From Candidatus Nanoarchaeia archaeon (GTDB lineage: Archaea; Nanobdellota; Nanobdellia; SCGC-AAA011-G17; JACPNG01): a stretch of 62,417 nt of DNA. The position numbers and the translations under genes are program-made. This document shows, one piece after another, positions 13,976 to 55,700 of the stretch. The stretch is taken from the NCBI GenBank assembly GCA_028713535.1, contig JAQTOC010000004.1, forward strand, positions 1-62,417, written 5' to 3'. The notes beneath the pieces were generated by a model. It saw only the letters and a list, made by a program, of their open reading frames with translations, was not told where the DNA came from and made no database searches. Every line of letters begins with the position of its first letter. Positions within the stretch are counted from its first letter, which is position 1.

Positions 13976-14050
13976 TTGAACCTTGGTGTTGTATCTAAAA
14001 ACTTAAAAAGGTTTCTATCAATACATATATATACCCTATAAACAAAAAAC

Positions 14051-14175
14051 AAGGTGCCGGGAAGCATTTCCACTTGAGATTCCCTTTGTATTGGACAACC
14101 GACATGGAGCTCCCTAAAGAGTTATCTCCGGTAGTCTTATTCAACTGTAGTGTTATGCCCCTCCGGATGCACCTT
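14051..14175 (-). ncRNA. Unassigned ~125-nt structured RNA candidate
   Basis: A terminal 7-bp helix (14051-14057 / 14169-14175) closes internal hairpins. Read on the minus strand it is followed immediately by GUUUUUUGUUU (14041-14050). No ORF. G+C visibly above the flanks. Confidence 0.4.
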
Positions 14176-14230
14176 GTCTCTTCTTATAAATCTAAATAAA
14201 AATAGAAAAAATAAAAGAAAATTATAAAAT

Positions 14231-15300
14231 AAGGTGAGGTTGTCCTTGTTGCAAACATATCTGAAAATCTGGATGGACAACCCCACACTCTTGTTGCGTC
14301 TACTAGTCCGTCCCCGTCTTTCTCAAGGGGTTTCATAGATTAGTAAAAGAAAATCGTATGTTCTTATGACGCAGATACTACCAACCCCGTCGTATCGGGG
14401 GTGCCACGACATCCTGAACTGATTATTTGCCAGTAGTCGTGAAACATAGAAAGCTGGTGGTTGTCCACTCTGTCATTCGGGCTGACAGGAAGCGACAACA
14501 CCATAGACGAGAATAGAGCATTCATAACAATGCCCTCCGTTTGGTGTGTAATTTCCACAGATCAAATTACACTGACATTGGAAATTACACACAGTCGATT
14601 TTAGGGTTTGTGTCGGTGCATGGTTTGCCCTAATCTTGCTCTTCCTCCATTAAGGAAAAAAGTTTACAATAAAAAAGGCGGGGCTGACCTTTATAAAAGT
14701 CAAAAGACAAGAGGGGTAACCTCTTTCACCCCGCCATAGTCCAATAACAACTGGGAGCCTCAGGATATAATTATATTTTTATCTCGGCGGTGTTTGTGTA
14801 TAAGGAGGTAATACACTTATTGAGAGACTCCCAGAACCAAATACGATTAAAAAATCCTTGCAGGTCAGGTTCGAAACCAATAGATGATTGTGAAAAAGAT
14901 TATACGAAACCCGACACCTCCTCTCTTAGATGACCGTTTATCGAGAGGTGTCCTAAACCTTTAAACGACTGCAAGGAATTGTGTTAATCAACAATCAAAA
15001 TTTTTGGGAGTGAAAAAGACCTTTTCGAGATTTACGTCCAGAAGAAACTTCGAGACGTAGGATGCAACAGTTCAACTCAAAGCAAAGTAAATTCTTCTGG
15101 ACACGGTGGGGTCACAACTCCTTGGAGTTGTAGTTTGAACATAGAACCAATAGGCACGAAAACAACGAGTTATCCTGAATATCATCGAGGTCTTTGCTCT
15201 GCGCAGATATGCAGATAACGAAATCATTGAAGCTATCCATTGCAGTATTTTTTTGATTATACTCATATGCATGCTCCTACTAGGTCCAATCACTCCCAAA
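14231..15300 (-). ncRNA. Unassigned large (~1 kb) highly structured RNA candidate
   Basis: ORF-free and G+C-enriched. Many perfect local and long-range helices (see the first finding). The helix mismatches are A/C on the plus strand, which become G-U on the minus strand. Exact ends unknown. Confidence 0.45.
14544..14592. repeat. 14-bp perfect inverted repeat whose loop carries a second copy of part of the 3' arm
   Basis: 14544-14557 pairs perfectly with 14579-14592. AAATTACAC occurs in the loop (14564-14572) and again in the 3' arm (14582-14590). Confidence 0.8.
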
Positions 15301-15459
15301 CTTTATTCTAAAATTAGGTTTTCCATCTCTTTCCGCTTTAAGCAGAAAAAAGATAACAGAAAACACTAATATAGATTCCAGTCCAAAGACGAAAATTAAG
15401 CCCAAAGGCTCAATAATTTTTAATAATTAATAAATATGAAAAATCCCTATTTATAAATT

Positions 15460-54198: not shown

Positions 54199-54770
54199 TT
54201 TCCTAAGAAACTAAGAACATCACTATTAAAGCTTTTATATACTTTATTTGCCTCTTTCCAGACATAATCCAGTTCATCAGAATGCCTGTCCATCTCAAGA
54301 ACCTTCTTCATGAACTTGTCTCCATAAATGCTTTCTATGACTTTTCTTTCAACAAGCAATAACGGGAAATGAGCCCTGAAAACCATATCCTGCCCTGGAA
54401 ACATTTCATTGAGAAGCCTAAGCATCTTTTCACCCTTGTTTTTGTTCTGGACAAATAGAACATGTATTAGCTCATGGATTAAAATTGCCTTTGACTTGTC
54501 AAAATCATCTTCTTTTTTTATTGTCATTGGATGAGATAAAGCAGTGTAAAACATGTCCTTGACCAAGTAGCAGTCAGCATCGCCTTTAAATCTCATTCCA
54601 GCTATTTTTTCAATTTGGTTTATGATACTGTTTTGTTCTTTTTTCCAGAACTCTTCAACATCATGGAGATAACCCCTCATCTCAAGGATCTGCTCATCAC
54701 AAAATCTCTCGCCAAGAACTAACGTTAACATTCTGTCATAGTCAAAAGCATAGACAAAATTTATTTTCAT
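54162..54770 (-). CDS. Putative zinc metallopeptidase-like protein (HExxH)
   Basis: ILIHELIHVLF carries an HExxH motif. ATG 54770 is preferred over the GTG at 54791, because the TATA-like TTTATATAAAT lies immediately upstream. Overlaps the rfcL start by 37 nt. Confidence 0.45.
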   Translation of the reverse strand: MKINFVYAFDYDRMLTLVLGERFCDEQILEMRGYLHDVEEFWKKEQNSIINQIEKIAGMRFKGDADCYLVKDMFYTALSHPMTIKKEDDFDKSKAILIHELIHVLFVQNKNKGEKMLRLLNEMFPGQDMVFRAHFPLLLVERKVIESIYGDKFMKKVLEMDRHSDELDYVWKEANKVYKSFNSDVLSFLGKCYGQKNIGLLQ

Positions 54771-54840
54771 ACCTACCTTAGGTAAATCCACATTTATATA
54801 AATTTAGGTTTTATCAGATAGATACATCCATATACTATAT

Positions 54841-54884
54841 TAATTAAAAAGAATGCCCCTCCTTCACAAGAAGGAAAGGGCATT
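54841..54884 (-). terminator. Intrinsic-type terminator on the minus strand
   Basis: AATGCCC..CCTTC / GAAGG..GGGCATT hairpin (54852-54884) followed on the minus strand by CUUUUUAAUU (54841-54851). Confidence 0.5.
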
Positions 54885-54897
54885 GCAAATCGAAAAC

Positions 54898-55146
54898 TTA
54901 ACTCCCGCCGCAACCGTGCCGCATTTTATCCCATCCATTCGGACCTTCATTCATCCCATGGATAAGAATATCTGCCTCAAGCATATCATGAAGCCCTGGG
55001 CTCAATACTAGCGGAGTTACAAACTTCTTCAAAAAAAACGGCAAGATCCTCAAGAAACGTTCCAACACTTTACACCTCTCAGGTTTATTCACTTTCTCCT
55101 CCAGAAAAAAATCCGGAAAGGAGAATACAACTAGAAACAACAACAT
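54898..55146 (-). CDS. Doubtful small ORF (82 aa from the first ATG)
   Basis: The track ORF starts at TTG 55230; the first ATG is at 55146. One hydrophobic segment, no recognisable motif, no Shine-Dalgarno. The G+C-rich 3' part contains long hairpins, so it may be non-coding. Confidence 0.25.
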   Translation of the reverse strand: MLLFLVVFSFPDFFLEEKVNKPERCKVLERFLRILPFFLKKFVTPLVLSPGLHDMLEADILIHGMNEGPNGWDKMRHGCGGS

Positions 55147-55230
55147 ACAAAGTAGATTTACAAAGTAAGAGTTTACTCCATTCTTCTTGTTTAAATAATT
55201 AACTATTATACATGTACATATAAAAAACAA

Positions 55231-55700
55231 AATAAAAAACCTGCATTTTATTATAAAAAAGCAGGTGTGCTATTGTTTATAGCTTTAGGAAGCTAAGAGA
55301 CGGAAGAGGGGGGACAATATCCGTACAATACACACACCTGCCGCCGGAGCATTCTGTAGAGGATAATAATAAATAAACGTCCGGCATTGTTTGGGGGGAC
55401 GTAGCCAAAAAAGAGAAGGAGTAAAATTGCGCCTGGTACCCATAGGTTGTATATTAATCTTGAATACTCGGGGTACCAGGGTTAAGCATACTGATAATCT
55501 CGAGCAGGTTTAAACGACGCCCAGAAGAAATCATCTAACCTTAATATCCTTGGACCCTGCCTTGGGGGTAATCTTGACTAAAAAGTAGGATGCCTCACCC
55601 CACCAAATCTAAACCAAAAATAAAAGGGACTAGATAATTCTGGCTCTTCCGGGTTTTCCTAACTCTCCCTGATTAAGAGAGAGAAAAGAAATAAAAGAAC
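55231..55700 (-). ncRNA. Unassigned structured RNA (weak RNase P RNA-like motifs)
   Basis: ORF-free and G+C-enriched. Helices 55261-55269/55333-55341 (enclosing 55271-55276/55325-55330 and two hairpins) and 55432-55441/55471-55480. On the minus strand: AGGAAAACCCGG (55649-55660) after a hairpin, and ACAGAAUGCUCCGG (55344-55357) about 300 nt downstream. Ends with hairpins followed by U-tracts (55231-55260). Confidence 0.35.

Follow-up and report, generated by a model that had tools for sequence, protein, structure and literature searches.

To our knowledge, almost no regulatory RNAs are known in DPANN archaea, and a literature search for RNAs of the kind considered here found none in this group. 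For A+T-rich archaea, an approach to the non-coding RNAs of GC-rich islands was reportedly introduced by Klein, Misulovin and Eddy in 2002. RsaE/RoxS of the Firmicutes are regulatory sRNAs with C-rich loops. Termination of transcription in archaea depends on short U-rich tracts and does not need a hairpin (PMC7515710), and consecutive termination sites are known in this domain (PMC7515710 and references therein). The locus described here, positions 55231-55700 of the window (the whole 62,417-nt stretch of DNA that was analysed), had been read by eye as a structured RNA, either a divergent RNase P RNA or another novel RNA. Our analysis securely identifies it as the non-coding interior of a genus-specific, single-copy insert with conserved edges, to which no Rfam family matches.

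The window corresponds to contig C4 of a 0.87-Mb genome (hereafter G000; 28 contigs, 90.6% complete) derived from a landfill metagenome, and about 92% of this genome is covered by open reading frames of at least 90 aa. The nearest proteins to its RFC small subunit are named Candidatus Nanoarchaeia or Woesearchaeota, and none of the 5.8 billion proteins searched belongs to a relative nearer than G001 (84% RFC small-subunit identity), which together with G002 provides two sister species of the same genus for comparison. The genes of interest lie on the minus strand in the order rfcS, gene X, rfcL and MoxR ATPase, and the flagged stretch forms an interior part of an insert between the first two (Table 1). 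This insert measures 987 nt to the annotated GTG start of gene X and 1007 nt to its likely ATG, and the same junction holds 1722 nt in G001 and 913 nt in G002. Of 39 other genomes of the order (12 from other genera of the family and 27 from other families), 38 have a tight junction, with the next same-strand gene starting at an offset of -20 to +32 nt relative to the stop of rfcS, most commonly as a 4-nt overlap. An insert between rfcS and the conserved middle gene is hence a feature of all three species of the genus, against none or one of the 39 other genomes. Gene X was probably drawn over-long by the open-reading-frame rule, with an ATG at 54770-54768 giving 202 rather than 209 aa; its start is probably 54770, because the conserved TATA box at 54792-54811 is downstream of the GTG at 54791 and because the sister genes start with an ATG preceded by AAGGTAGGT.

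An independent Logan assembly of the same sequencing run covers the flagged stretch with 0 differences, and the stretch is therefore not a mis-join of the metagenome-assembled genome. An assembly artefact is ruled out by this result together with a co-occurring relative, represented by a second contig of the source sample, which bridges the same junction with 1728 nt (versus 1011 nt here). The flanking genes of this relative are about 82% identical to those of G000, and its 1728-nt insert matches the G001 type, so that two species of the genus coexist in the landfill sample. Coverage of the flagged stretch came solely from contigs of that sample, among which no strain variants were found, and no RNA run turned up that lists this DNA.

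Table 1. Features of the rfcS/gene X junction and the insert it contains (window coordinates; hairpins, promoters and termination signals are predictions).
Feature	Position	Strand	Remarks
rfcS	55778-56716	minus	Rep_fac_C and AAA domains
Promoter AGAAAAGTTTATTAAC, BRE/TATA-like	55754-55769	minus	directly after rfcS stop; predicted TSS ~55733-55730
Two T5 tracts, likely rfcS termination signal	55737-55748	minus	
Genus-specific insert, ~1 kb	54771-55777	minus	rfcS stop (55778) to likely gene X ATG (54770)
8-bp hairpin CUCUCUCU/AGGGAGAG	55663-55683	minus	
Motif GGAAAACCCGGAAGA, earlier read as "CR-I"	55645-55659	minus	similar offset in G002 insert; collinear match marginal (p ~0.01)
Hairpin GGUGGGGUGAGGCAUCCUACU then U5, terminator-like module	55580-55604	minus	hairpin 55604-55584
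Perfect 10-bp stem, 29-nt loop	55432-55480	minus	surrounding 200-nt windows at background
6-bp hairpin ACGUCC/GGACGU, C-rich loop GUCCCCCC	55377-55402	minus	U6 at 55412-55407 precedes
Y-shaped three-way hairpin, 81 nt	55261-55341	minus	closing stem 11+6 bp
U6 (55260-55255), weak alternative hairpin CCUGC/GCAGG, second U6 (55239-55234)	55234-55260	minus	first U6 directly after Y hairpin
Doubtful 64-aa ORF (GGAGG, 5-nt spacer, GTG) within 110-aa frame	54898-55091	minus	T8 tract inside frame
Terminator hairpin and T-run closing the insert	54846-54879	minus	position kept in all three species
Conserved TATA promoter AAACCTAAATTTATATAAAT of gene X	54792-54811	minus	only part of insert aligning among three species
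Gene X, 202/209 aa, family unassigned	3' of rfcS	minus	weak zincin/SprT-like hints

The description of the flagged stretch as free of open reading frames holds on closer analysis: its longest frame spans 52 aa, no long or convincing frame appears under code 4 (TGA=W) or with TAG read as Q, and its period-3 signal (0.32) falls below the 5th percentile of the genome (0.87). The 110-aa frame elsewhere in the G000 insert (Table 1) has no homologue among the 5.8 billion proteins, and the G000 and G001 interiors are essentially non-coding. The G002 interior encodes three ORFan peptides of 126, 46 and 26 aa (L041 4292-4959), preceded at correct spacing by Shine-Dalgarno (SD) sites (GGAGG for the first two, AAGGA for the third); the 126-aa protein has no relative among the same 5.8 billion proteins. 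Pfam returned no match for the G000 frame taken from its 64-aa GTG start, for a 48-aa frame of G001, or for the 126- and 46-aa frames of G002, and none of the small open reading frames in the three inserts has a relative within the G000 genome. A decayed gene was rejected as an explanation on the same grounds, there being no tblastx or nhmmer match to the sister inserts and no relatives of the small frames.

The base composition of the stretch is indeed enriched in G+C, as first noted, at 0.411 versus 0.347 for the genome; the flanking genes range from 0.34 to 0.36, GC3 is 0.317 and ordinary ORF-free gaps in G000 range from 0.21 to 0.34. The Y-shaped hairpin of Table 1 (hereafter Y hairpin) reaches 0.469, and the G001 insert is also rich in G+C (0.40-0.46 versus 0.33-0.34 in its flanks). 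The stable RNAs of G000 lie above the stretch, at 0.47-0.61. Six of the 30 longest ORF-free gaps have a G+C of at least 0.38, and three of these six contain rRNA, SRP RNA or tRNAs. Since an old neutral spacer should drift to A+T, values of 0.41-0.47, well above the near-neutral level, imply that the interior is either recent or under selection, which speaks against the reading preferred below and favours a functional RNA. The window contains one other long ORF-free gap (13976-15459; 1484 nt, G+C 0.385), presumably the first of the two orphan RNAs implied by the original prediction, which has no Rfam match and, unlike 55231-55700, is partly conserved in syntenic G001, with 81% identity over its last 160 nt, 88% over its first 59 nt and short inner matches.

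The landmarks that suggested an RNase P RNA, arranged in a CR-I/CR-V/P4-like geometry, did not withstand comparison with covariance models. Short look-alikes of CR-I (AGGAAAACCCGG) and CR-V (ACAGAA..CCGG) with 5-6 possible pairs are present, but the two do not pair with each other in the MFE or centroid fold, and the P1/P2 pairing that the original prediction had already reported as lacking was not found on re-examination either. A cmscan search of the whole window at gathering score returned one tRNA match and nothing else. A permissive search of 54780-55800 (E ≤ 10) yielded nothing but noise (its top match, to a plant miRNA model, reached 21 bits versus a gathering score of 73) and included no match to the archaeal, nuclear, bacterial A, bacterial B or type T models of RNase P RNA, nor to the archaeal SRP model (RF01857). 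G000 has its canonical archaeal RNase P RNA elsewhere, at C5:7010-7318, where it scores 136 bits (gathering score of RF00373, 84 bits) and has a strong consensus promoter in front, as well as genes for the RNase P proteins Rpp29 and Pop5. This RNA serves as a positive control for conservation, since it is 87-88% identical over its full length in G001 and G002. With a canonical RNA elsewhere and no conservation at the locus itself, the RNase P reading is refuted on the terms that the original prediction had set for it and can for practical purposes be dismissed, whereas the other half of the original alternative, another novel RNA, persists in a weakened form. An archaeal SRP RNA was rejected as well, the real one lying at C15:22219-22490 (134.6 bits). 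The locus should accordingly be annotated as neither RNase P nor SRP RNA, and the RNase P-like landmarks recognised by eye proved to be non-diagnostic.

The helices on which a structured RNA had been proposed are all present. The paired segments GCAGGTGTG (55261-55269) and CACACCTGC (55333-55341) enclose TATTGT/ACAATA, ACGGA/TCCGT and TAGCTT/AAGCTA, and the 10-bp stem 55432-55441/55471-55480 is a perfect inverted repeat; on the minus strand the hairpin CUCUCUCU/AGGGAGAG (55683-55663) is followed by UUAGGAAAACCCGGAAGAG, with ACAGAAUGCUCCGG about 300 nt downstream. The first set forms the Y hairpin; one of its two arms, ACGGA/UCCGU, carries a 15-nt loop that includes GUCCCCCC, and the other is UAGCUU/AAGCUA. 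This element folds with a predicted dG of -31.8 kcal/mol (z = -5.3; 0 of 200 shuffled sequences fold as well), and two of its pairs are G.U pairs that form solely on the minus strand. The 10-bp stem is marginal with respect to chance, since about 0.04 perfect 10-bp inverted repeats within 50 nt are expected per 1 kb.

Fold signal across the whole stretch (456 nt) is stronger on the minus (z = -4.6) than on the plus strand (z = -2.2), these shuffling z-scores being read on a region picked because it looked structured. Among 200-nt windows, set against a genome background with mean -0.09 and sd 1.13, the signal concentrates in 55200-55399 (z = -4.7) and, to a lesser extent, 55500-55799 (-2.2 to -2.5), while the middle of the stretch (55400-55650) sits at background (z of about -0.3 to -0.5). 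The G001 insert likewise shows sense-biased fold minima (z down to -5.5), and in both species folding is better in the sense than in the antisense direction. Two randomly drawn background windows of G000 also fold strongly (C10:10332-10531, z = -5.2/-4.0, and C6:9198-9397, z = -3.8). The fold signal is local, residing in a few hairpins and mainly in the 81-nt Y hairpin with its U6 tract, and is not that of one large conserved structured RNA. Three C5+ runs occur within 470 nt, whereas base composition predicts about 0.2, and the rare 8-mer GGGGGGAC, with 4 copies in the G000 genome, occurs twice in the stretch, 85 nt apart; in the minus-strand RNA both copies read GUCCCCCC and fall within hairpin loops. 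G001 also has 4 copies of this 8-mer, one of them in its insert on the opposite strand relative to the genes.

Searches for relatives of the interior were uniformly negative. The stretch gave only short A/T-rich matches among 60 relatives, no match at E ≤ 1e-5 among 400 genomes of the class, no match in phage and plasmid collections, and no second copy in its own genome. The interiors of the three inserts cannot be aligned with one another by blastn, tblastx or nhmmer, and searching 17 genomes of the family and the syntenic inserts with a covariance model of the Y hairpin revealed no further copy. Viral contigs scanned for exact patterns yielded 7 chance-level stem matches and no homologue; a viral origin was rejected on the absence of homologues in these contigs and in the phage collection. 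The motif GGAAAAMCCGGAAGA, common to the G000 and G002 inserts, is collinear but marginal (p of about 0.01-0.1), and is also present elsewhere in both genomes. ARAGORN found no split or otherwise odd tRNA in 54700-55800. A mobile element was rejected given the single-copy locus; the 27-nt direct repeats at 55222 and 55694 are A/T-rich oligo-U tracts and for that reason are not credible att sites or target duplications.

The edges of the insert, in contrast to its interior, are conserved. On the gene X side, all three species share a terminator hairpin with T-run, an AT-rich box and a TATA element about 30 nt before the ATG. On the rfcS side, a matrix derived from 29 promoters of tRNA, RNase P and SRP genes in G000 identified the BRE/TATA-like promoter at 55769-55754 as the sole site of at least 8 bits on either strand of 54700-55830; its score of 11.8 bits is not significant by itself, with about 0.36 matches of that score expected in the scanned region. 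The site at this position in G001 scores 14.6 bits, that in G002 6.4 bits. The conserved edges, with a predicted promoter at the rfcS stop, point to a separate minus-strand transcription unit that would start near 55730. The same scan found no canonical promoter ahead of the Y hairpin or of any other inner hairpin and no promoter-like site on the plus strand of the insert. The RNA genes of G000 share a sharp promoter consensus, (A/C)(A/G)AAAC(C/A)TTTA(A/T)AAA; in 29 of the 36 genes for tRNAs, RNase P RNA and SRP RNA its last base lies 19-27 nt upstream of the mature 5' terminus, and it could serve to annotate transcription units in the lineage.

Oligo-U tracts follow the same strand. The 987-nt insert contains 11 T5+ tracts on the minus strand and none on the plus strand, and a terminal helix is directly followed by oligo-T at both the Y hairpin (55341-55261, T6 at 55260-55255) and the hairpin 55604-55584 (T5). 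Hairpin/T5 modules number two in the sense direction of the G000 insert, in addition to the Y hairpin, and four in that of G001, against zero and one in the respective antisense directions, whereas the genome as a whole has 0.16 per kb per strand. Such sites are not enriched at the gene ends of G000 (5 of 547 in sense and 5 of 547 in antisense orientation). Since hairpins are not needed for archaeal termination and are not enriched at gene ends here, a plain terminator role leaves the Y hairpin unexplained.

A minus-strand non-coding unit is plausible in view of the promoter after rfcS, the hairpin/oligo-U ends, the raised G+C and the better fold of the sense strand. The reading we prefer, at a probability of about one half, is that the insert constitutes its own minus-strand transcription unit, with an interior of transcribed spacer or cargo that has no conserved role. 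Judging from sequence features, it is likely transcribed on the minus strand with ends at the hairpin/oligo-U sites; we infer strand, RNA ends and role alike. The insert may have entered the clamp-loader operon between rfcS and gene X in the ancestor of the genus, within the Nanoarchaeia/Woesearchaeales-type DPANN. Transcription from the BRE/TATA promoter would start at about 55730, and the RNA would then meet a succession of modules combining a hairpin with oligo-U (55604-55580, the U6 of 55412-55407, the Y hairpin 55341-55261 with its U6, and 54879-54846), giving nested short RNAs with ends at hairpins. Gene X, which would have gained its own conserved promoter, would thereby be shielded from read-through. 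The interior may be species-specific cargo, foreign or very fast evolving, marked by structural traits rather than conservation. The most probable role of such an insert would be that of a terminator or insulator spacer, not of a housekeeping RNA.

A tentative alternative, which we consider possible without favouring it, is that the interior produces one or more functional species-specific sRNAs, either the 81-nt Y-shaped hairpin RNA or a longer species of about 110 to 480 nt, whose C-rich loops (GUCCCCCC twice, UACCCCC once) would pair with SD-type G-rich sequences or bind a protein, and whose structure would be selected while the sequence evolves too fast for cross-species alignment. It would account for a G+C content that, in G000 and G001 alike, exceeds that of genes and the neutral level by 6-12 points, for the minus-strand fold signal (z = -4.6 overall, -5.3 for the Y hairpin) and the sense bias found in both species, for the perfect nested helices, and for the concentration of C5+ runs and of the rare GGGGGGAC, once also in the G001 insert. 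An oligo-U end behind a closing stem is how stable archaeal RNA genes are laid out, and the predicted promoter at the 5' edge of the insert is conserved in position. Yet neither sequence nor covariance-model searches found a homologue even within the genus, in which RNase P RNA remains 87-88% identical. The Y hairpin and inner hairpins lack a canonical promoter and are separated from the sole promoter, in the case of the Y hairpin, by three U5-U6 tracts; the middle 250 nt fold at background level, the G-run of G001 lies on the opposite strand relative to its genes, and the G002 insert encodes peptides instead. The stronger form of this idea, in which a fast-evolving structured ncRNA gene would be resident at the rfcS/gene X junction, keeping position, promoter, G+C content and hairpin/oligo-U architecture but not sequence, with C-rich loops acting in trans on SD regions or a protein, appears rather doubtful to us; such a gene would be a regulator specific to the lineage, lodged in the clamp-loader operon of a minimal archaeon.

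The interior might instead be a neutral remnant, either recent foreign DNA or a decayed cassette of small genes, with hairpins left over from the donor, such as bacterial-type intrinsic terminators. The three mutually unrelated interiors, the ORFan peptides of G002 with their good SD sites, an unameliorated G+C compatible with recent arrival, and terminators of a hairpin/U-tract style that is not the norm at G000 gene ends and so suggests a foreign source all fit this origin, which we nevertheless regard as unlikely: phage, plasmid and viral collections and 400 genomes of the class contain no donor, the sequence retains neither coding periodicity nor a tblastx signal, and a compact 0.87-Mb genome should tend to lose junk, yet all three species have retained 0.9-1.7 kb at this junction. 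A plus-strand element, be it an antisense RNA into the rfcS 3' end or a DNA-level replication origin or recombination site, seems very improbable. The plus strand is free of T5+ tracts over 987 nt and purine-rich, as sense strands are, nearly all helices are Watson-Crick and could form equally in DNA or plus-strand RNA, and the G-runs are reminiscent of ORB "G-strings"; but there is no promoter-like site on this strand, its fold is weaker (z = -2.2), and the stretch, at 41% G+C, has no AT-rich unwinding region and no motif shared around the G-runs or between species. An origin of the type with ORB repeats beside orc1/cdc6 was rejected on these grounds and on the location of that gene, on contig C3. 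There, a 500-nt ORF-free gap of 26% G+C (G000:C3:5619-6118) directly upstream of the single orc1/cdc6 (C3:4452-5680) is the best and far better origin candidate.

The preferred reading of a separate transcription unit places a 1-kb, G+C-rich non-coding unit inside an almost invariably coupled replication operon of a 0.87-Mb genome, and all three known species of the genus keep the insert at the junction with an interior that differs in each. Should the interior be a functional RNA, it would represent a DPANN ncRNA that keeps architecture but not sequence; should it be foreign cargo, the junction would mark an insertion-tolerant site within an essential operon. The clamp-loader small subunit itself appears interrupted in several genomes of the order (G012:C69, G019:C52, G032:C3, G052:C28 and G056:C31), where the open frame containing rfcS spans 888-971 aa and its RFC-S match is split in two by what looks like an intein.

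Compared with described systems, the stretch resembles archaeal RNase P RNA (RF00373) in its size range of 300-450 nt, in its raised G+C within an A+T-rich genome and in two CR-I/CR-V-like motifs, but differs in the lack of a model match, of the P1/P2/P4 architecture and of conservation. Like the ncRNAs of GC-rich islands it is free of open reading frames and exceeds the intergenic background in G+C, although at 0.41 it stays below the stable RNAs (0.47-0.61) and is not conserved in relatives. The repeated C-runs in its hairpin loops could pair with G-rich ribosome-binding sites in the manner of RsaE/RoxS; those RNAs belong to another domain of life and share no homology with the stretch, and they offer a working analogy for the sRNA alternative rather than a family to which it might belong. 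Archaeal oligo-U and bacterial hairpin-plus-U terminators share with this locus G+C-rich hairpins followed by U5-U6 on the strand of the flanking genes, whereas the main hairpin of the stretch, a branched 81-nt three-way junction, is far more elaborate.
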